DNA from: Candidatus Diapherotrites archaeon CG10_big_fil_rev_8_21_14_0_10_31_34
GTDB lineage: Archaea > Iainarchaeota > Iainarchaeia > Iainarchaeales > 1-14-0-10-31-34
DNA length: 12,617 bases
Reading direction: 5' to 3'
Assembly: GCA_002763225.1 (NCBI GenBank)
Contig: PFAI01000036.1
Span: 19,544-32,160, forward strand
The translations under genes and the position numbers were made by a program. Below, one piece after another: positions 870 through 11,281 of the stretch. The stretch's first letter is position 1; each line of letters opens with the position of its first letter. Under the pieces are notes generated by a model. That model worked only from the letters and a program-made list of their open reading frames with translations, was not told the origin of the DNA and made no database searches.

Positions 870-950
870 ATTATGTATATTTTTCATTTTGTTTTTAAAC
901 TCTTTTTTCTTTAACCTAATATAATTCATATTTTTTATGAAAATTTTTTT

Positions 951-956
951 GGGGGA
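951..956 (+). promoter_or_regulatory. Shine-Dalgarno site for gap
   Basis: GGGGGA 4 nt before the ATG at 961, supporting 961 over 937 as the start. Confidence 0.6.
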
Positions 957-960
957 TTTT

Positions 961-1947
961 ATGGTTAAAGTTGCAATAAATGGTTTTGGAAGAATCGGAA
1001 GAATTCTTTTAAGAGAAGGTGTAAACAGAAAAAACTTGGAGTTTGTTGCAATAAACGATTTAACTGACAACAAAACCCTTGCTCATTTATTCAAACATGA
1101 TTCAGTTCACGGAGTCTTTAAAGGAGATGTTTCTTCTGATGAAAAAAGCATTTCAGTTAATGGAAAAAAAATAAAGGCTTTTTCTGAACCCAATCCAGAA
1201 AAACTTCCCTGGAAAGAGTTAGGTGTTGATGTAGTTTTTGAATGCACTGGCAGACTAAGAAAAAACGAGGACTTCAAAAAGCATTTAACTGCTGGCGCAA
1301 AAAAAGTTATTGTTTCTGCTCCGGCAGACGGAGTTGATTCAACAATTGTTTTAGGAGTCAACAACAAAGACATAAAAGAAAGCCATAAAGCTTTCTCTAA
1401 TGCTTCTTGCACCACAAATTGTTTGGCTCCGGTTGCAATGGTTTTAGAAAAAGAATTCGGAATAATTTCTGGAATGATGAATACAATTCATGCTTTTACC
1501 AGCGACCAGGTTTTATTGGATGGCCCTCACAAAGACTTAAGAAGAGCAAGAGCTGCTTCTCTTTCAATTATTCCTACTACAACTGGCGCAACAAAAGCAG
1601 TTGGAAAAGTCCTTCCTGCAGTTCAGGGAAAACTAGATGGAGTTTCTTTAAGAGTTCCAGTTCCAACTGGCTCAATAACTGATTTTGTCTGTTTAGTTAA
1701 AAAAGAAACAACAATTGAAAAAGTAAATTCTGCTTTAAAAAAAGCTTCTGAAACTTATCTAAAAGGCATTCTTCAATATACTGAAGAACCATTAGTTTCT
1801 CATGACATTATTGGAAGCAATTATTCCAGTATTGTTGATTCAGAATTAACTCAAGTAGTAAACAAGAACATGGTCAGAGTTCTTTCATGGTATGATAATG
1901 AATGGGGTTATTCTGCAAGAATGCTTGATTTAGCTGAAAAACTTTGA
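961..1947 (+). CDS. gap: Class I (bacterial-type) glyceraldehyde-3-phosphate dehydrogenase
   Basis: MVKVAINGFGRIGR, INDL, catalytic ASCTTNCLAP, DLRRARAA, RVPVPTGS and WYDNEWGYS. Start placed at 961 from the SD site and the typical N-terminus. Confidence 0.97.
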   Translation: MVKVAINGFGRIGRILLREGVNRKNLEFVAINDLTDNKTLAHLFKHDSVHGVFKGDVSSDEKSISVNGKKIKAFSEPNPEKLPWKELGVDVVFECTGRLRKNEDFKKHLTAGAKKVIVSAPADGVDSTIVLGVNNKDIKESHKAFSNASCTTNCLAPVAMVLEKEFGIISGMMNTIHAFTSDQVLLDGPHKDLRRARAASLSIIPTTTGATKAVGKVLPAVQGKLDGVSLRVPVPTGSITDFVCLVKKETTIEKVNSALKKASETYLKGILQYTEEPLVSHDIIGSNYSSIVDSELTQVVNKNMVRVLSWYDNEWGYSARMLDLAEKL

Positions 1948-1957
1948 AAGTGAGAAA

Positions 1958-3166
1958 ATGCTTAAATCAATTAGTTCAGTTAAAATCAAAGGAAAAACTC
2001 TTTTAGTCAGAGTTGACTTGAATTCAAATATTCAGAATTCAAAGCCTGTTGTTGGAGCAAGGCTAAAAGAGCATTCCAAAACAATAAAACTTTTTTCATC
2101 CAAAAAAGCAATAACGGTTGTTTTAGCTCATCAGGGAAGAAAAGGTCAGGAAGATTTTGTTTCATTAAAAAATCATTTGCCTTTACTGGAAAAATTAATC
2201 GGAAAAAAAATCTTTTTTTCAACCTGGGCAGAAGATTTCAAGAAAAAAATTTCTTCTTTAAAAGAAGGAGAAATTTTATTAATGGAAAACACCAGATTTT
2301 TGGATTTTGAATCAGAAGAAAAAACTCCTGAAGAGCATTCCAAACAGCCTTTAATCAAAGACCTTGCTTTAGTTTCTGATGCATTTGTTTTGGATGCCTT
2401 AAGTGTTTCTCACAGAAGCCATGCATCTGTTGTTGGCTTTATTCCTTTACTTCCATCTTATTCGGGCCCTGTTTTAGATGCAGAAATAACTAATTTAGAT
2501 AAAGCACTGAATTTTCAAGAACATCCAAGACTGCTTTTTTTAGGGGGAGCAAAACCAGAAGATTCACTGAAAACACTTTCTTTTTTTCTGAAAGAAAACA
2601 AGACAGACAAAGTTTTGGTTTCAGGAATTTTTGGAGAATTATTTTTAGTTGCTTTAGGAAAAAAATTCGGCAAAAAAGATGAATTCTTTGAATCAAAAGG
2701 CTTTTTTTCTCTGCTTCCTGAAATAAAAGGATTATATGAAAAATTCAGGGAAAAAATTGTTTTGCCAAAAGATTTTGCTTTAGATAAAAACGGAAAAAAA
2801 GCAAATATTTCAGTTGAACAGCTTCCTTTAGATTTTATTTCAAAAGACATTGGAGAAAAAACTATTCAGGATTTTTCAAAAGAAATTTCTAAAGCAAAAC
2901 TAATTGTGTTTAATGGTCCTCCAGGAGTATTTGAAGAAAAAGCATTTTCTCTTGGAACAAAAGCAATTCTTAAAGCAATGTCAGAGAGTTCTGCTTTTAC
3001 TTTTCTTGGGGGAGGAGACACAGGAACTGCATTAGAATCTCTTGGTTTTTCCTCAAAACAATTTTCTTTTGTTTCGCTTAGTGGCAAGGCTTCTTTAAAT
3101 TATTTGTCCGGAAAAAAATTAGTGGCAGTTGAAGAACTAAAAAAAGCAAAATTAGAATTAAAGTAA
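1958..3166 (+). CDS. pgk: Phosphoglycerate kinase, archaeal-like
   Basis: RVDLNS, LAHQGRKG, MENTRF, SHRSHASVVGF, GGAK, DIG, NGPPGVFE and GGGDT motifs; 402 aa; 10 nt downstream of gap with GTGAG upstream of the ATG. Confidence 0.95.
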   Translation: MLKSISSVKIKGKTLLVRVDLNSNIQNSKPVVGARLKEHSKTIKLFSSKKAITVVLAHQGRKGQEDFVSLKNHLPLLEKLIGKKIFFSTWAEDFKKKISSLKEGEILLMENTRFLDFESEEKTPEEHSKQPLIKDLALVSDAFVLDALSVSHRSHASVVGFIPLLPSYSGPVLDAEITNLDKALNFQEHPRLLFLGGAKPEDSLKTLSFFLKENKTDKVLVSGIFGELFLVALGKKFGKKDEFFESKGFFSLLPEIKGLYEKFREKIVLPKDFALDKNGKKANISVEQLPLDFISKDIGEKTIQDFSKEISKAKLIVFNGPPGVFEEKAFSLGTKAILKAMSESSAFTFLGGGDTGTALESLGFSSKQFSFVSLSGKASLNYLSGKKLVAVEELKKAKLELK

Positions 3167-3773: not shown

Positions 3774-6557
3774 TCATTCAACCAAAATAGCAGGCTTTAA
3801 CGGAAAAGCATTCAAAGCCTTTTTTTCTTCACTTTTTTCTGCTTCAATTACCTGAATTTCAGCTGAAAACTCTTTTTGCAGTTCACCTGAATTTTCTTTC
3901 AATGTTTTTATTTCATTTAATTCAATGAATTCATTCATTTCATTAAGTTTTTTTACTGCAGCCATAACAAATCCTTTGATTTCTTGTGCATGCTGTTTAT
4001 CGAACTCAATTGCTTTTTTCATTGCTTCTCCAAACTCGATTCTTTTGTTTTCATTTTTTTCTTTTACTTCAAACAATTTTTTTAATAAAATCCATTTCCA
4101 TTTTGGTGCAGTAAAAATTTTTATTCTTTTAATTTCTTCTTTTTGCATTTTTTCAGCTAATTTTGTTTGTTGTTTGATTATTGAATCAATTGGAGCACTG
4201 GTTTCTTTTTGCATTTTTTCAATAAATTTTTTTGGCTGTTCTGATATTAAATCAGTTATGTGCAGGATATCTTTTTGAATCCTTTCAATGAATTCTTCTT
4301 GTTTTTCTGCTTTTAAATCAATTTTTTTCTCTTCAAATTCAGGCCATTTTCCTAAACTGGAAAAACCTTTTCCCCCAATTTTTTCCCATAATTCTTCGCT
4401 TAAATGCGGGGCAAAAGGGTTTAACATTAAAACAAGTTTTTCAATCCCAATCCAAAAAACTGGGCTTTCTTTTTCTTCAAATTTCTGCAATGCATTAGTT
4501 AACTGCATTAATTCTGCAATAGCCTTGTTTAATTCAAGTTTTTCAATTAATTCTGAAGTATTTTTTATTATTCTCTGAGTTTTTGACTGAAGTAATTTTT
4601 CTTTTGAATTTAATTCCTTTTTGTGTTCAGCCTTTTTTTTGTTGTCTCCAACAAGTGAAAAAATTTTATTTAAGAATTTAAATGAATTTTCTGCTCCTTT
4701 TTCATCCCATTCCATTTCGCTTTCAGGATTTGATGCAGACAAAATAAATACTCTTGCAGTGTCTGCTCCAAACTTTTCAATTATTTCTCCTGGGTCAACC
4801 ACATTACCCAAACTTTTGCTCATTGCTTTTCCGTCTTTTAAAACCATTCCTTGTGTAAGTAATTTTTCAAATGGCTCGTCAATTTTCAATAACTTCAAGT
4901 CTCTTATTGCTTTAGTGAAAAACCTTGCATACATTAAATGAAGTATTGCGTGTTCAATGCCTCCAATATACTGGTTTACAGGCATCCAGTATTCTGCTTC
5001 TTTTTTTTCAAACACTGAATTTGCTTTTGGCGAGCAATACCTTAAAAAATACCAGCTTGAATCAAAAAAAGTATCCATTGTGTCTGTTTCCCTTTTTGCT
5101 TTTCCTTTGCATTTAGGACAAGATGTTTCAACAAAATCTTTTATTTTATTAAGTGGATTTCCTTTTCCAGTAAACTCTGCTTTTTCAGGAAGCCTGACAG
5201 GCAACTCTTTTTCCGGCACCAACTGAATTCCGCATTTCTCACAATAAATAACAGGAATTGGCGTTCCCCAAAATCTTTGCCTTGAAATCAGCCAGTCCCT
5301 TAACTTGTAATTAACTGTTTTTTTTCCCCATTTTTGTTTTTCTAAAAAATCACTTATTTTTTCCATTGCATCTAATGAATTCATTCCATTAAATTTGTCT
5401 GAATTAACCATTATTCCTTTTTCAACAAAAGCTTTATTTATTTTTTCAGCATCTAATTCTTTTCCTTTTGGCTGAATCACTATTTTGACTGGCAGTTTAT
5501 ATTTTTTTGCAAACAAGAAATCTCTTTGGTCATGTGCCGGAACAGCCATTACTGCTCCTGTTCCATAATCCATTACCGCATAATCTGCAACAAAAATCTT
5601 GCATTCTTCTCCATTAACCGGATTAATAAAATGTTTTCCAATAAAAATTCCTTTTTTTTCTATTCCTTCTGAAGTTCTTTCAATTGCAGTCTGCTTTTTC
5701 ACTTCAGCTAAAAACTCATCTAGTTTTTTTTCATATTCAGTTCCTTTAACCCATTTTCTTATTTTTGGGTGCTCTGGAGCAAAAACTAAATAAGTTATTC
5801 CAAAAACAGTATCAGGACGAGTAGTAAAAGTTGAAATTATTTCTTTTGTTTCTTTTACTTTAAAATAAATTTCTGTTCCAAAACTTTTTCCAATCCAGTT
5901 TTTTTGCATTAATTTAACTCTTTCAGGCCAGTCCTTTAATTTATCCAAGTCTTCCAGTAATTCATCTGCATAATCAGTTATCTTCAGAAACCATTGCTCT
6001 AATTCTTTTTCTTGAACAATATTTTTGCATCTCCAGCATTTTCCGTTTTCAACTTGTTCATTAGCCAAAACTGTTCCACAGTCATCACACCAGTTAACAC
6101 TTGCCTTTTTTTTGTACACTAATTTTTTTTCAAAAAATTTTTCAAACAGCCATTGATTCCATTTGTAATAACTTTCATCTGCAGTAGCAAAACTTCTGTT
6201 CCAGTCATAGCTGAATCCAAGCATTTCCTGCTGTGATTTCATTTCATCAATTCTAGAATACGTCCACTCTTTTGGATTAACTTTTCCTTTTATTGCAGCG
6301 TTTTCTGCCGGCAAACCCAATGCATCATAACCCATTGGGTACAAAACATTAAATCCTTTCATTCTTTTGTATCTTGCAAGCGAATCTCCAATAGAGTAAT
6401 TTCTTACATGCCCCATATGAAGTTTTCCTGATGGATAAGGAAACATTTCTAAAACATAATATTTTTTTTTCTCTGAATTCATTTTTGCTTCAAAGACTTT
6501 TTCTTGTTTCCATTTCTTTTGCCATTTCTCTGAAATCTTTTTATAATCTGCTTCCAT
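3774..6557 (-). CDS. leuS: Leucine--tRNA ligase (bacterial-type core, archaeal-type C-terminal domain)
   Basis: [13 protein letters not shown] (HIGH motif), TFTTRPDT and [15 protein letters not shown] editing domain, [28 protein letters not shown] (KMSKS motif); C-terminus FTAPKWKW...[11 protein letters not shown]. Confidence 0.97.
4137..4221. repeat. 19-nt direct repeat inside leuS
   Basis: TTCTTTTTGCATTTTTTCA at 4137-4155 and 4203-4221 (66 nt = 22 codons apart), encoding EKMQKE twice. Confidence 0.75.
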
Positions 6558-6669
6558 TCAATCACTTTAATGCTTTAATTATTAGTTTAATAAGAATTTT
6601 TAATATCAACTTAATTCTTTCCACTTTAAAAATATTTTCTATTCTTTTTTTGTTTAAGAGGAGTTTTTT

Positions 6670-6849
6670 TTGAGTGAATTAAGGTTTCCAGAATATGATC
6701 CAGAAATATGCGCTTACTGTGGGGCATGTGTTGCAGTTTGCCCTGCATTGGCTTTGGATTTAAAAGAAAAAAGAATTGTTTTTAATAAAGAGAAATGCAG
6801 GCAATGCCTTGCATGCACTAAAATTTGTCCTGTAGGAGCATTAAAATAA
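6670..6849 (+). CDS. 2x[4Fe-4S] dicluster ferredoxin, 59 aa (absent from ORF track)
   Basis: Manual translation from TTG at 6670: MSELRFPEYDPEICAYCGACVAVCPALALDLKEKRIVFNKEKCRQCLACTKICPVGALK*. Two CxxCxxCxxxCP motifs; AGGAG SD at 6659-6663. Confidence 0.93.
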   Translation: MSELRFPEYDPEICAYCGACVAVCPALALDLKEKRIVFNKEKCRQCLACTKICPVGALK

Positions 6850-6877
6850 ATTAGTTGTTTGGTTATTTGGCGGGAAA

Positions 6878-9214
6878 ATGGAAAAAGAATTTGATGTAAT
6901 TATTGTCGGCGGAGGCCCGGCAGGTTTAAGGGCAGCAGAAAAAACCGCTGAAAAAGGATTAAAAGTTTTATTATTAGAAAAAGACCAGGAAATAGGTTCT
7001 CCGGTAAGATGCGGTGAAGGACTTGGACTAGGCTGGTTTAACAGATTAGGGATTGAACCAAAACCAGAGTTTGCTGTTCAGCCAATGTATGGAGCAGTAT
7101 TGTATTCTCCTTCGGGAAAAGAATTAGTGGTTAGGTTTGACAGAATAACAGGTTATATTATTGAAAGAAGGATTTTTGAAAAGCATTTAGCAAGAGAAGC
7201 AGCAAGAAAAGGAGCAAGAATTATTGCTAAAACAACTGCAATAGATGTATTAAAAGAAGGAAATCAAATTACAGGAGTAAAAGCTTTAATTGATGGAATA
7301 GAAACTGAATTAAAAGCAAAAATTGTTATTGCAGCAGACGGCGTAGAATCAGTTATTGCCAGAAAAGCAGGATTAGACACAACTAACTCATTATATCACG
7401 TTGATTCAGGTTATCAATATGAAATGGCTGGAGTTAAAATTTCTCATCCTGATTTAATTGCATTATATTTTACAAACAATTATGCTCCAAGAGGATATTG
7501 TTTAACCGGAGACACAGAAATTTTTGCAAGAAACACTGTAAAAAAAATTTCTGATGTTGGAATTGGAGAAGAAGTTTTAACTTTGGATGGCTGGATGCCG
7601 GTATCAGATGTTTCTGAAAGAGAGTATGCTGGGGAAATAGTTTCTGTCACTCCAACTATGTTAAATAAAGAAGCCAAGCTAACTGCAGACCATTTGGTTT
7701 ATGTTTGGAATAAAAATAATGGCTTTGAGTGGAAAAAAGCAAAGGATTTGATTGAAACTAAAAAAGAACTTCGCGGAAAAGGGGATTATTTGGTTTTTCC
7801 CATAGCCGAAGAAAAAAAGCAGAAATTTATTGATGTTTCAAAATATTATGAAGGAATAGAAAAAAATGGTTTAATTTATCCAAAAGGAAGAAACCAGTTT
7901 GGAAAAGAATTTCCTTATAGACACGGGATTCCCAGAGACTTAGAATTTTCTGAAGAATTAATGGAGTTTTTTGGTTATTATGTTTCTGAAGGAAGCATTA
8001 ATTCCAATGGAGTAATTATTCCAAACACAGATAAAAAAATAATTAAGCGCTTAATGCGTATAGGAAAAAAAGTATTTGGTTTTCAGCCAAATTTGTGGGT
8101 TCAAAAAAGGCAAGAGTATTCTTATAAAGACTGTATTCAAGTTAATTTCGGTTCAAAGATTGTAAAAAAATTAACTTTTTCGTTGTTTGGAAAAGGTTCA
8201 AAGGAAAAACACTTGCCTAAATTTGTTTATGGTTTGACTAACAGACAAAAACTTGCGTTTTTGAAAGGCTGTTTTAGAGGGGATGGTTCTGTCTTTAAGT
8301 CAAGTGAAGGTTTAGATGTTTTATCTTATACAACTTCTTCTAAGTCTCTTGTTTATGATTTATGGTATCTTTTGGCTTCAATGAATATTGTTGCAGCAGT
8401 CAGCCATAAAAAAAAGAAAAATTCATTTCAGTTAAGAATCAGAGGAAAACAATTAGATAAACTTTCAAGTATTTTTGGAGAATTAAATCATGGAAATGCC
8501 GAAAGAAACACAGGATTCTTAATTAAGAATAATAAAGTTTTTTTAGGAATCAGAAAGCTGAATTCAGAGTATTTTTCAGGAAAAGTCTATGATATTCAGA
8601 CAACAGGTTCTTTTTGCCCTTTCTTTGCTGTTCACAACTGCTGGATCTTTCCAAAAGGAAAAGATTATGCTAACATAGGTGTTGGAATTCTTGGTTCTGA
8701 TATTAAAACAGCAAAAAAATACTTGGATGAATGGCTTGAAACCCAGCCTGAACTAAAAAATGGCAGTAAAATCATTGTAAATGCTGGTTGCATTCCTGTC
8801 GGAGGCTTTTTAGACAAAATGACTTTAAATGGCTTAATTGTTGTAGGAGATGCAGCTCATCAGGTTAATCCGATTCATGGCGGGGGAATGGGAATTGCAA
8901 TGGAAGCAGCAGATATTGCAGCAGAAGTAATCAAAGAAGCTTTTGAAAAAAACGATTTTTCTGACAAATTCCTTTCACAGTATACTTCTAAATGGTATGA
9001 AAAAAGAGGAAACAAATTAAAGAATATTTTAAAGAAAAGAAAAATGCTTGAATCAATTTCAGATAAAGACTTTGAAGTTTTAGTTAACTCTTTAAGCGGA
9101 GAAGATGTACTAAAATTAGCTGAAGGCGAATTAATTGAGTCAGCCAAAATTTTAACAAAAAAGCTGGTAAAAAACCCTAAACTTGCAATGCTGATGGTTA
9201 AGTATTTAAAATAA
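6878..9214 (+). CDS. Digeranylgeranylglycerophospholipid (geranylgeranyl) reductase family flavoprotein, intein-containing precursor
   Basis: FAD motif DVIIVGGGPAG, PVRCGEG, ERRIFEKHLA, IAADGVES, reconstituted APRGY|CWIFPKG, and GDAAHQVNPIHGGG. 778 aa minus a 380-aa intein gives a 398-aa mature protein, a typical size for the family. Confidence 0.92.
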   Translation: MEKEFDVIIVGGGPAGLRAAEKTAEKGLKVLLLEKDQEIGSPVRCGEGLGLGWFNRLGIEPKPEFAVQPMYGAVLYSPSGKELVVRFDRITGYIIERRIFEKHLAREAARKGARIIAKTTAIDVLKEGNQITGVKALIDGIETELKAKIVIAADGVESVIARKAGLDTTNSLYHVDSGYQYEMAGVKISHPDLIALYFTNNYAPRGYCLTGDTEIFARNTVKKISDVGIGEEVLTLDGWMPVSDVSEREYAGEIVSVTPTMLNKEAKLTADHLVYVWNKNNGFEWKKAKDLIETKKELRGKGDYLVFPIAEEKKQKFIDVSKYYEGIEKNGLIYPKGRNQFGKEFPYRHGIPRDLEFSEELMEFFGYYVSEGSINSNGVIIPNTDKKIIKRLMRIGKKVFGFQPNLWVQKRQEYSYKDCIQVNFGSKIVKKLTFSLFGKGSKEKHLPKFVYGLTNRQKLAFLKGCFRGDGSVFKSSEGLDVLSYTTSSKSLVYDLWYLLASMNIVAAVSHKKKKNSFQLRIRGKQLDKLSSIFGELNHGNAERNTGFLIKNNKVFLGIRKLNSEYFSGKVYDIQTTGSFCPFFAVHNCWIFPKGKDYANIGVGILGSDIKTAKKYLDEWLETQPELKNGSKIIVNAGCIPVGGFLDKMTLNGLIVVGDAAHQVNPIHGGGMGIAMEAADIAAEVIKEAFEKNDFSDKFLSQYTSKWYEKRGNKLKNILKKRKMLESISDKDFEVLVNSLSGEDVLKLAEGELIESAKILTKKLVKNPKLAMLMVKYLK
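7499..8638 (+). mobile_element. Intein with LAGLIDADG homing endonuclease (aa 208-587, 380 aa)
   Basis: Block A CLTGDTEI, block B LTADHLVYV, block C FFGYYVSEGS (~7961-7999), block E FLKGCFRGDGS (~8255-8290), block F VYDIQT, block G AVHN followed by +1 Cys. Confidence 0.95.
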
Positions 9215-9894: not shown

Positions 9895-11010
9895 ATGCAG
9901 TTGCTGAATTTAACTTTAAGCTACCTTTTACAGGAAACCAGTTCTTTAATTGAAAATTCTTTTATTAACAAACTGCAGGAACTGGATAATGATAAATTTA
10001 AGTTAAAGTTAAGAACAGCTAATGGAACAAAAAATCTTTTTCTTTTCCCTTTAGCAGTGTTTTTTTCTGAATACAAAATTGATGCAAAAAAACAGACATC
10101 AGGGTTTGGTGCATTTTTAAGAAAAAGGATTGAAGGAAAAAAAATTCTTGCAGTCTCTCAGCATAACTCAGACAGAATTATTCAGATGGAATTGCAGGAC
10201 TATTATTTAATCCTTGAATTATTTTTGAATGGAAATATTATTTTAACAGACAAGGAATTCAAAATAATTTCTGCTTTTAAAAAAGACGAAAACAAAAACA
10301 GAAAAATCTCTAAAGGAGAACTTTATTTGTTTCCTGAATCAGCCAAACTAAATCCAAAAGAAATGGGTTTTGAAAACTTCAAACAAAGTTTTGAAAAAGA
10401 TGACAAAGAAAATTCAGTTCTTTCAGTTATTTCTTGTTTAGAGATTGCACCAATTTTTGTTGAAGAAATATTTTTCAAGCTTAATCTAAAAAAAGAAAAA
10501 AAATTAACTGAAAAAGATTTAAAAAAAGTTTTTGATGAAATCAAAAAAATGTATTCATTAAAAGAAAAATCAAATCCAGTTAAGGTTCAAAAAGGAAAAG
10601 AATTTTTTATTATTCCTTTTCCTTTAACTTCAGTTAAAAAAACAGAAAAAATTAATTCAATTAACTCTGCTTTAGATGAATTTTATTCAAAAGAGTTTTT
10701 TTCTGAAAACCAGCCGGAAAAAAAATCAAAAAAACTAATTGGTTTAGAGTACAGCTTTGGACAGCAACTTGATGCAGAAAAAAAACTAAAAGAACAAATT
10801 GAATTAAACAAAATCAAGGCAGAAGCAATTTACTTAAATAATTTGTTGATTCAGGAAATAATTGACTCAGCAAAAAAAGGTTTATCTAAGGATTTAAAAG
10901 AAAAAGAAATAAAAGAAAAAATTAATGTTTACTTAAAAACAAATAATAAAGAAATAGAATTAATTTCTTTAACCAGAAACAAAGTATTACTTAACTTGAA
11001 AGAAAAATAA
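9895..11010 (+). CDS. rqcH: NFACT/Rqc2 (RqcH, FbpA-like) N-terminal half
   Basis: SGFGAFLRKRIEG, NSDRII, LILELFLNGNIILTD, IAPIFVEE (HhH-like), SINSALDEFY and a following coiled coil; AAGGAG SD; no NFACT-R domain recognisable. Confidence 0.8.
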   Translation: MQLLNLTLSYLLQETSSLIENSFINKLQELDNDKFKLKLRTANGTKNLFLFPLAVFFSEYKIDAKKQTSGFGAFLRKRIEGKKILAVSQHNSDRIIQMELQDYYLILELFLNGNIILTDKEFKIISAFKKDENKNRKISKGELYLFPESAKLNPKEMGFENFKQSFEKDDKENSVLSVISCLEIAPIFVEEIFFKLNLKKEKKLTEKDLKKVFDEIKKMYSLKEKSNPVKVQKGKEFFIIPFPLTSVKKTEKINSINSALDEFYSKEFFSENQPEKKSKKLIGLEYSFGQQLDAEKKLKEQIELNKIKAEAIYLNNLLIQEIIDSAKKGLSKDLKEKEIKEKINVYLKTNNKEIELISLTRNKVLLNLKEK

Positions 11011-11011
11011 A

Positions 11012-11281
11012 TTACTCGCTTTCGATTGCACTTAATTCTCTTTCATCGACGATAAACACATCGCTTACTGCTGTTACAGCAGAATAAGGAATGTTTATTA
11101 CTCTGTCTTTTGAACCGATTTTTTTGATTACTTTACTGTCTCTGTCAACTTCAACTAACAAGGTTTCAATGTCTCCTGTTACTTCATTTACAATTAAATC
11201 GGTTAGTTTTCCTACTTCGTCTCCTCTGTTTGTAATGACCCTTTTAGTGGCCAACTGTCTTGCTACAGTGTATTTATACAT
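11012..11281 (-). CDS. Stand-alone PRC-barrel protein (CdpB-like)
   Basis: LATKRVITNRGDEVGKLTDLIVNEVTGDIETLLVE...IPYSAVTAVSDVFIV fits the PRC-barrel pattern; 89 aa. Confidence 0.85.
   Translation of the reverse strand: MYKYTVARQLATKRVITNRGDEVGKLTDLIVNEVTGDIETLLVEVDRDSKVIKKIGSKDRVINIPYSAVTAVSDVFIVDERELSAIESE

Follow-up and report, generated by a model that had tools for sequence, protein, structure and literature searches.

Geranylgeranyl reductases (GGRs) carry a short motif, YxWxFP, that passages of two papers assign to the substrate site (PMC4244643, PMC6309074). In the stretch of DNA analysed here (the window: 12,617 nt of contig PFAI01000036.1, assembly GCA_002763225.1, from an Iainarchaeota genome), a gene of this family has the motif split by an insert. 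The open reading frame, insert included, encodes 778 amino acids (6878-9214, plus strand; all coordinates are window positions). The tyrosine of the motif is residue 207; the residue that should follow it is Cys588. What is the intervening sequence, and is it really there? How did it enter a motif in which most related genes lack the residue that it would need to leave the protein again?

The flanks are two halves of one enzyme. The N-extein (residues 1-207; 6878..7498, plus strand) has a Rossmann motif and the redox Cys45 (7010-7012) and ends on Tyr207. It matches positions 1-198 of TIGR02032 and 2-209 of NF041160 and aligns to residues 4-211 of the structure 3OZ2. The C-extein (residues 588-778; 8639..9214, plus strand) starts with Cys588, the +1 residue and the x of YxWxFP, and continues with WxFP-x8-GxG, a GGG motif (8879-8887) and the C-terminal helices. 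It matches GGR_cat and positions 200-297 of TIGR02032, 211-389 of NF041160 and 213-393 of NF041080, and aligns to residues 211-376 of 3OZ2; in TIGR02032 and NF041160 the parts matched by the two halves adjoin. Even with the insert in place the protein scores 221.8 on TIGR02032, over the cut-off of 158.8. All the family motifs, as defined in literature passages (redox Cys45/47, YxWxFPx7-8GxG, GGG), are present: Cys45, Y207-C588-W-I-F-P-x8-G-V-G and G668-670. C45, G206 and Y207 are invariant in 66 sequences. The assignment of the host to the GGR family, made in an earlier note on this DNA, holds.

The gene has a likely partner. A 59-residue 2x[4Fe-4S] ferredoxin (6670..6849, plus strand; Pfam Fer4 twice, E 2.9e-14) is encoded 28 bp upstream, and paired ferredoxin motifs occur at 24 of 29 intein-free orthologue loci (L011-L039). 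This small protein is the probable electron donor of the reductase; a GGR-ferredoxin pair in M. acetivorans provides a precedent in the part of PMC4244643 consulted.

Is the substrate a membrane lipid, as the earlier note had it? Here the family assignment is firmer than the substrate. The window protein misses the equivalog cut-offs of three DGGR models (251 of 780 on NF041160, 213 of 580 on NF041080, 100 of 700 on NF041385), two of which are named for lineages. Even an intein-free congener, P0069, misses them, at 262, 239 and 133. Such scores would suit a GGR paralogue acting on another prenyl substrate, such as a quinone or polyprenol. Two further GGR-family genes in the window genome (G000) fit that reading, as do the congener G005, which retains PcrB/GGGPS but has no reductase cassette, and the failure of PcrB to pass its cut-off in G000 (81% complete). 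We nevertheless think it rather unlikely. In both sequence and structure the T. acidophilum DGGR 3OZ2 is the best match, DGGR models lead among the profiles, Nitrososphaerota alleles score highest on NF041080, and the upstream ferredoxin recalls M. acetivorans. Given that ferredoxin, CarS and three UbiA genes in G000 and PcrB in 5/5 congeners as context, the enzyme probably reduces a membrane lipid.

The insertion itself is real. Four congener genes, 77-91% identical to the exteins, have the two halves directly joined, and the same insert recurs at this junction in 49 of 49 aligned homologues, which rules out a chance insertion. Contigs from other sequencing runs cross the 5' junction (X2, 6600-7590; X7, 7070-7677) and the 3' junction (X2, X7, X8 and X11). 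No single contig piece among those listed in these runs covers the whole stretch, and the runs listed as containing it include no RNA data set. The junction-bridging contigs and the 49 homologues together rule out a chimeric assembly, the artefact that the earlier note had named as a possible refutation. One joint in X2 that skips 7432-8642 is too weak (one contig, depth 2, a 21-letter side) to be taken as a sign that an empty allele co-occurs.

What, then, is the insert? Positions 7499-8638 (plus strand) are free of stops and translate to 380 amino acids, from Cys208 to His-Asn587, with Cys588 at +1. The flanks read APRGY and CWIFPKG. Coordinates, residues and the split between Tyr207 and Cys588 are all as first described. 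The N-terminal splicing region (7499..7790, right edge approximate) contains block A with Cys208 and block B with Thr269 (7682) and His272 (7691); a Hint match covers intein residues 1-80. The C-terminal region (8534..8638) consists of a short block F (Asp572 at 8591) and block G (His586, Asn587). The block F-G region of the usual intein consensus is longer than that of the intein at this position, which we call site a. Between the splicing regions, at residues about 355-533 (7940..8476, edges approximate), lies a LAGLIDADG homing endonuclease with two motif helices bearing acidic residues (Glu371, Asp469) and a block-D lysine, Lys444. Pfam LAGLIDADG_3 matches residues 457-529 over its cut-off (E 1.7e-17), and a predicted structure model contains the endonuclease helices.

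Seventy-five alleles of this intein, a set selected partly by its His-Asn-Cys junction, all have Cys1, the block-B Thr and His, the terminal His-Asn and Cys+1; the block-F Asp is kept in 74. The endonuclease residues are less uniform (Glu in 65, Lys in 70, Asp in 63). Two Pfam splicing profiles stay below their gathering cut-offs: Intein_splicing (E 1.4e-5, 25.4 against 35.8) and Hint (E 0.005, 16.9 against 29.7). We read this as insensitivity of the profiles, because the predicted fold clearly matches solved inteins, with TliVMA (7QSU) at a Foldseek E of 4.7e-18. Cys1 and the block-F Asp rule out a class-3 mechanism. The insert is thus confirmed as a class-1 LAGLIDADG intein that is predicted to splice.

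If the conserved residues act as known intein chemistry predicts, Cys208 would undergo the N-S shift, Cys588 would take over the N-extein and Asn587 would cyclise. The product would be a 398-residue reductase with YxWxFP regained. It is plausible that reductase activity depends on this reaction.

The insert is thus of a textbook type. It shares Cys1, TxxH, the block-F Asp, His-Asn, Cys+1, a double LAGLIDADG motif and a common fold (Foldseek E 4.7e-18 to 7.7e-12) with TliVMA/PhoVMA (7QSS, 7QSU, 7QST), PI-PkoII (2CW7) and PI-PfuI (1DQ3), at just 12-18% identity in structural alignment. Those inteins reside in an ATPase, a polymerase and a ribonucleotide reductase; this one sits in a flavin prenyl reductase. 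The host in turn has the fold of T. acidophilum DGGR Ta0516 (3OZ2; TM 0.89 over the chain), and shares Cys45, YxWxFPx8GxG, GGG and the upstream ferredoxin with this enzyme, the S. acidocaldarius GGR (3ATQ) and the M. acetivorans pair. These relatives have no intein, and Ile or Trp at the x position.

How unusual is such a host? Section 6 of PMC4760082, the part drawn on here, places 67% + 8% of archaeal inteins in replication and nucleotide proteins, which thus dominate the host list. A lipid enzyme as host is less exceptional than the earlier note held, for it is not unprecedented: NCBIfam already contains NF045703, 'tetraether lipid synthase Tes, intein-containing'. Tes too is an archaeal membrane-lipid enzyme, and NF045703 is the best NCBIfam match of the GGR intein (E 9.8e-19). 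Tes, however, is a radical-SAM enzyme, and its intein is non-allelic and distantly related (the score on the model is 67, where the cut-off is 1700). We found no description of a GGR intein in the literature searched, and a flavin prenyl reductase seems to be an undescribed host. The proposal of a new insertion site stands to that extent; the site is no one-off, for at least 75 distinct alleles exist, some automatically annotated as intein or homing endonuclease.

These alleles come from Iainarchaeota, Micrarchaeota, Aenigmatarchaeota and Nitrososphaerota records. Among 215 genomes of the phylum Iainarchaeota, 5 have the intein and 99 an empty site. In three genomes where the intein-bearing gene is known to be present, a protein search at E 1e-15 failed to recover it, so searches for such split genes undercount. 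About 95% of orthologues, the closest congeners included, are free of the intein. Viral carriers were sought as well: no junction matched in viral contigs, none of 23 candidates was confirmed, and named phages gave just 5 weak non-allelic matches (25-30% identity).

Has the intein simply been inherited from an ancestor and mostly lost, with little current homing? The window intein and that of L106 are sisters in both intein and extein trees, with similar dS (0.72 and 0.89), and the window allele may therefore have been inherited within the genus and lost in sister lineages. The Nitrososphaerota alleles likewise form one clade in both trees. For the family as a whole, comparison points elsewhere. 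In quick or FastTree trees, the 19 intein alleles of a 141-row clade require 18 changes, as many as shuffled labels do on average (18.0), so that the roughly 5% occupancy shows no phylogenetic clustering. Of the intein clades put to AU tests on the exteins, three are rejected (p 1.7e-4, 2.8e-6 and 3.7e-21) and two are not (p 0.28, 0.13). Between L084 and L104 the exteins are 94% identical (dS 0.37) and the inteins only 66%, with saturated dS, and between L062 and L072 the exteins are 95% and the inteins 73% identical; both pairs look like replacement of the intein allele in near-identical hosts. Endonuclease dN/dS is 0.15 between the window and L106 and 0.04-0.19 in most pairs, rising to 0.29-0.38 in one decaying clade. 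Purely vertical descent is improbable and, for the family, largely refuted. At the level of the family, then, the alleles are mobile and their endonuclease is under purifying selection; the window allele itself may not have moved recently.

The position of the insert inside a substrate motif raises another thought. Conditional splicing of other inteins is known, and the host might have domesticated this one as a switch, with redox, heat or stress acting through Cys1, Cys+1 and the block-F Cys580 to control lipid saturation. The block-F cysteine is present, by eye, in 43 of 49 aligned alleles. A switch is hard to square with the intein-free state of 95% of orthologues, and a 96%-complete congener (G005) has no host gene at the syntenic place. 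Allele replacement and an endonuclease under selection are what a parasite would leave. We regard a switch as very improbable.

By far the likeliest explanation, in our judgement, is a selfish, still-mobile class-1 intein at the Y-x bond of YxWxFP in a ferredoxin-coupled GGR-family gene. The predicted endonuclease would cut intein-free alleles at the conserved stretch, and repair would copy the intein in. Later, the endonuclease would decay or be deleted, and the intein would be lost or replaced; a mini-intein of 198 amino acids and degenerate alleles exist.

This cycle meets an obstacle at +1. In most empty alleles this position is taken by Val, Leu, Ile or Ala, residues that would be incompetent for splicing; in the four empty congeners they are Val, Ala, Leu and Leu. 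Since most empty sites could not splice, successful invasion would take either a minority allele that already has Cys or a transfer in which the Cys codon of the donor is copied together with the intein. The haloarchaeal MCM-d intein is a precedent for such co-conversion on invasion (PMC10643990, as far as the portion consulted goes): the nucleophile is always at +1 in invaded alleles and mostly absent from empty ones. In that case the contrast is between Pro and Ser, the helicase is essential and the rate is low; in the GGR genes Val, Leu, Ile, Ala or Gly stand against Cys, in four phyla and in a gene that one congener lacks.

Could invasion of Cys alleles be the whole story, with a fast, nearly neutral +1 position and non-Cys neighbours arising by later or independent drift? 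Suitable targets exist. Cys occupies +1 in 24 of 126 empty alleles, scattered over the tree, and by eye in 17 of 100 Iainarchaeota rows, in 5 of 130 from a sample of a Nitrososphaerota order and in 8 among the 150 Micrarchaeota matches listed. When each of 70 empty alleles is paired with its nearest empty neighbour, 44 pairs disagree in this residue. Five other aliphatic columns have Cys at 12-33%, so its presence at +1 needs no intein explanation; after this column control we dropped abnormal Cys frequency as an argument. Intein/empty pairs have no significant excess of flank divergence near the site (permutation p 0.14; 15 against 70 pairs), nor do Cys-empty alleles lie significantly nearer to those with the intein (p 0.18). 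The low rate reported for MCM-d in the portion consulted points the same way (PMC10643990).

Other observations resist drift. For 11 of 15 intein alleles, the closest empty allele has a residue other than Cys. P0009 lies within a 15-row Val/Leu clade, at a branch length of 0.03 from a Val allele. It takes two base changes to turn a Val, Leu, Ile or Ala codon into one for Cys, and no Phe intermediate occurs at +1 in 100 empty-site rows of Iainarchaeota. Although it lies between invariant residues, +1 is the most homoplastic position of the protein: among 317 minor states ranked on held-out trees, +1 Leu is first and +1 Cys eleventh, while eight other Cys states rank 96-317. Against empty L014, the L106 exteins match at 78-93% in 15-codon bins but at 67-78% between codons -15 and +30; the mosaic could lie on the L014 side, because synonymous identity in the flank is 53% against 72-77% elsewhere. 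On balance we lean towards frequent co-conversion, because the nearest relatives of intein alleles are mostly non-Cys. Invasion of Cys alleles without rewriting or escape is the less probable account, though a serious one.

Site a has neighbours. A paralogous family has a sister intein three residues upstream (site b) and two further sites (c and d) whose inteins do not group with a and b. A first tree, with one long site-b row, nested b within a; with seven site-b rows b became sister to a, and descent of b from a was dropped. Among the best matches listed for 301 genomes from one order of Nitrososphaerota (a further 393 rows were unlisted), none has a site-b intein. Eight genes of G000 contain inteins; one encodes a NifU/IscU scaffold and another a heavy-metal P-type ATPase. 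Glycosyltransferases, an epimerase and an oxidoreductase are among the hosts of the nearest non-GGR inteins.

A bolder picture, which we offer only tentatively, would make the +1 codon the site of an arms race between intein and host. Inteins would routinely rewrite it to Cys and hosts escape to Leu, Val, Ile or Ala, which would make +1 so homoplastic. An ancestral intein would have shifted by three codons between this family and the paralogous one, and the GGR superfamily, with at least 4 sites, would be a hotspot of inteins that has gone unrecognised, in a family of lipid-metabolism genes that is partly dispensable.

Some intein-bearing GGR genes go under the name 'LAGLIDADG family homing endonuclease', and because of this naming surveys of lipid pathways in DPANN and Nitrososphaerota can miss them. 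A flavin prenyl reductase joins the list of intein hosts; its one site is widespread, and a paralogous family adds at least 3 others. The 75 filled and hundreds of empty alleles, with at least 5 states at +1, offer a natural test of how inteins enter sites that lack a nucleophilic +1 residue, and the sister inteins three residues apart one of how inteins found new sites.

The GGR-family reading frame of the window (6878-9214, plus strand, 778 aa) contains a complete intein, as the earlier note had proposed. The intein spans 380 residues without a stop (7499-8638, plus strand), from Cys208 to His586-Asn587, with Cys588 as the +1 residue. In a profile search its two flanks tile TIGR02032 without overlap (positions 1-198 and 200-297). 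The whole protein, intein included, scores 221.8 bits, where the cut-off is 158.8, and in alignment the exteins pair with adjoining halves of the Thermoplasma acidophilum DGGR 3OZ2. The joined exteins belong to the GGR family. The earlier note had raised the possibility of a chimeric assembly. Contigs in two other sequencing runs (X2 and X7) bridge both the 5' and the 3' junction, and the 3' junction is also found in X8 and X11; this check covered 4 of 24 listed runs, all as Logan contigs labelled groundwater metagenome, three of them sharing one year and possibly a single campaign. The intein is real and canonical and belongs to a mobile family.

An AlphaFold2 model (mean pLDDT 87.8, pTM 0.54) is of low confidence at the junctions (204-207, 576-578 and 581-587) and nowhere else. 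Its structural matches are, in order, 3OZ2 (TM 0.89 over the target), the S. acidocaldarius GGR and the TliVMA intein. Because 16 of the 66 rows in the input alignment are intein-free, the model is no proof of a folded or an inactive precursor. The block F-G region (8591-8638) is short and modelled with low confidence; by eye, its Cys580 is conserved in 43 of 49 alleles, with Thr in five and Val in one. Between block B and the endonuclease the model places a beta-rich insert (about 7790-7939), possibly an accessory DNA-binding domain. Within it, the stretch YPKGRNQFG is conserved and common to the inteins of site a, the Y|C junction of the YxWxFP motif, and of a second site, b.

What does the host enzyme do? 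According to part of a review (PMC4244643), GGR holds its substrate with YxWxFPx7-8GxG, and the M. acetivorans enzyme requires its upstream ferredoxin. Here the gene 28 bp upstream of the reductase encodes a di-cluster ferredoxin of 59 aa, and ferredoxin motifs occur at 24 of 29 intein-free orthologue loci. The reductase has Cys45/47, YXWXFP and GGG, all three of the features that active GGRs share in the account consulted from PMC6309074. The source genome (81% complete) encodes CarS and three UbiA proteins; its PcrB is below cut-off, and PcrB is above cut-off in all five congeners. A firm DGGR label is weakened because even an intein-free congener scores below the equivalog cut-offs and because the source genome encodes two further GGR-family genes. 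The cassette can be absent: in one congener (G005, 96% complete; L239:876-1501, contig G005:C9) leuS stands directly beside the next gene, with the ferredoxin-GGR cassette gone and PcrB kept. In the window, the leucyl-tRNA synthetase (3774-6557, minus strand) is of bacterial type (TIGR00396, 994 bits, versus 296 for the archaeal model), and all five congeners have it. Other neighbours include a transglutaminase-like protein (3-869, plus), GAPDH-like and PGK-like genes identified by eye (937-3166, plus), a 371-aa RqcH without the C-terminal part of its 645-position model (9895-11010, plus) and a PRC-barrel protein (11012-11281, minus).

The intein is not confined to this gene. A protein search gave 66 matches, 49 of which, the window's own included, are GGR proteins with an intein, inserted at the same Y|C junction in every case. 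In GTDB genomes the junction pattern found 22 loci, 6 of them chance bacterial matches and 16 real: by record title, 2 in Iainarchaeum, 3 in Micrarchaeota/Micrarchaeales, 1 in Aenigmatarchaeota, 6 of Nitrososphaerota type and 4 given as archaea. Metagenomes gave 46 such loci (31 real, 11 chance, 4 not parsed); none came from viral contigs. After removal of identical inteins and fragments, 75 distinct alleles of 198-440 aa remain, the smallest a 198-aa mini-intein. Their splicing residues vary little or not at all. The endonuclease acidic residues are retained in 65 and 63 of the 75 and elsewhere substituted or deleted.

Each of the four states, empty, active, decaying and mini, represents a stage of the homing cycle. 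In the phylum of the source genome the intein occurs in at least 5 of 215 genomes and the empty-site pattern in at least 99, both lower bounds, since some genomes are incomplete and the pattern can miss sites. When 197 extein rows were placed on a tree with the flank columns left out, the intein alleles appeared one by one at scattered tips; the window's own clade of 141 rows has 19 of them, which require 18 changes, and shuffled labels give a mean of 18.0. Six intein clades, picked from the intein tree and tested with quick trees on 30 extein sequences, gave three rejections and two non-rejections, and the sixth (window plus protein P0004) is in both trees. Some hosts are 94-95% identical while their inteins are just 66-74% identical, with dS saturated or nearly so, which amounts to replacement at the same site. 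Among pairs above an identity filter from 38 loci, endonuclease dN/dS is 0.15 for the window against L106, a related intein-bearing locus, and 0.29-0.38 within one decaying clade. For the window allele itself, inheritance within the genus with loss in sisters is possible.

Splicing requires Cys, Ser or Thr at +1, the x of YxWxFP, which is usually aliphatic. The best 120 intein-free homologues have Val (64), Cys (18), Leu (13), Ile (9), Ala (7) or Gly (1), with 8 unparsed. Counted by eye, Cys occupies +1 in 17 of 100 empty-site rows from the source phylum, in 5 of 130 from a Nitrososphaerota order sample and in 8 of the 150 Micrarchaeota rows listed, 37 more lying outside that list. All four congeners have a residue other than Cys, as does the nearest empty allele for 11 of 15 intein alleles. 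Among 317 minor states, ranked for homoplasy on trees with each block held out, Leu at +1 is first, Val at +3 fourth and Cys at +1 eleventh; eight other Cys states rank 96-317. One pair is mosaic at the insertion site. Co-conversion, in which the donor Cys codon is copied in with the intein, is thus likely. We go no further than this since excess flank divergence at the site (p 0.14) and a proximity test (p 0.18) gave null results and Cys is equally common at five other columns. The MCM-d intein offers a precedent: in the part of PMC10643990 consulted, empty alleles with Pro are co-converted to Ser upon invasion, at a low rate.

Further sites lie in a paralogous family. A search of 50%-identity representatives returned 18 proteins at E values up to 1e-30, among them P0190, a divergent GGR-like protein below the TIGR02032 cut-off (E 2e-9). 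Site b, where its 40%-identical intein sits, is three residues upstream from site a. Of the nine site-b proteins found, eight have Ser at +1 and one has Cys; P0343, one of the nine, has another intein at the redox Cys. In three other proteins an intein interrupts the GE motif, which precedes the GGG-equivalent loop; these have Cys at +1, versus Ser in the empty relatives displayed. Together these divergent proteins (P0190 and P0336-P0346) have three intein sites and are widespread in a Nitrososphaerota order, in a sample of which the site-b host family is matched in 268 of 301 genomes. In five members of that family (P0347-P0351), about 120 aa of non-intein sequence are inserted before the GE motif. 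Inteins of sites a (28 rows) and b (7 rows) form one group, as sisters (SH-aLRT 99); those of sites c and d are unrelated to them in the tree.

The earlier note considered a lipid enzyme an unusual intein host. That view is weakened: NCBIfam has a model for an intein-containing Tes, so an archaeal lipid enzyme has already been noted as a host. Among 29 scanned intein relatives, the hosts outside GGR that could be matched to a family include six glycosyltransferases, an NAD-dependent epimerase, a Gfo/Idh/MocA oxidoreductase and an AMP-binding enzyme. The source genome, 1.04 Mb, has eight intein-bearing genes. One (L248:1238-2743, contig G000:C22, minus) encodes a NifU_N/IscU Fe-S scaffold, interrupted at a conserved Cys, NPV|CGD, by a full LAGLIDADG intein; genomes G050 and G058 have a similar match. 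Another encodes a heavy-metal P-type ATPase with YHS, HMA and E1-E2 domains (L246:134-3907, G000:C13, plus), whose intein ends right before CVGAVGDGIND, adjoining the hinge motif. Five others (L245, L247, L249, L250 and L251, on G000:C3, C15, C25, C35 and C55) have as hosts a type II/IV secretion ATPase, MCM, EF-2 and two gene products, HerA-like by eye, with exteins that have no Pfam match at E 1e-7. In this the genome resembles the intein-rich genomes that, in the portion of PMC10710043 consulted, extend the host range.

Is the insertion site new, as the earlier note suggested? To our knowledge, InBase has no GGR host. The open full-text literature yielded no paper describing a GGR intein, and the text searched in the supplement of PMC4760082 names no GGR, COG0644, flavoprotein or lipid host. 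Site and host family are apparently undescribed. What raises the case above routine is a testable turnover of the +1 codon, together with two sister sites three residues apart.
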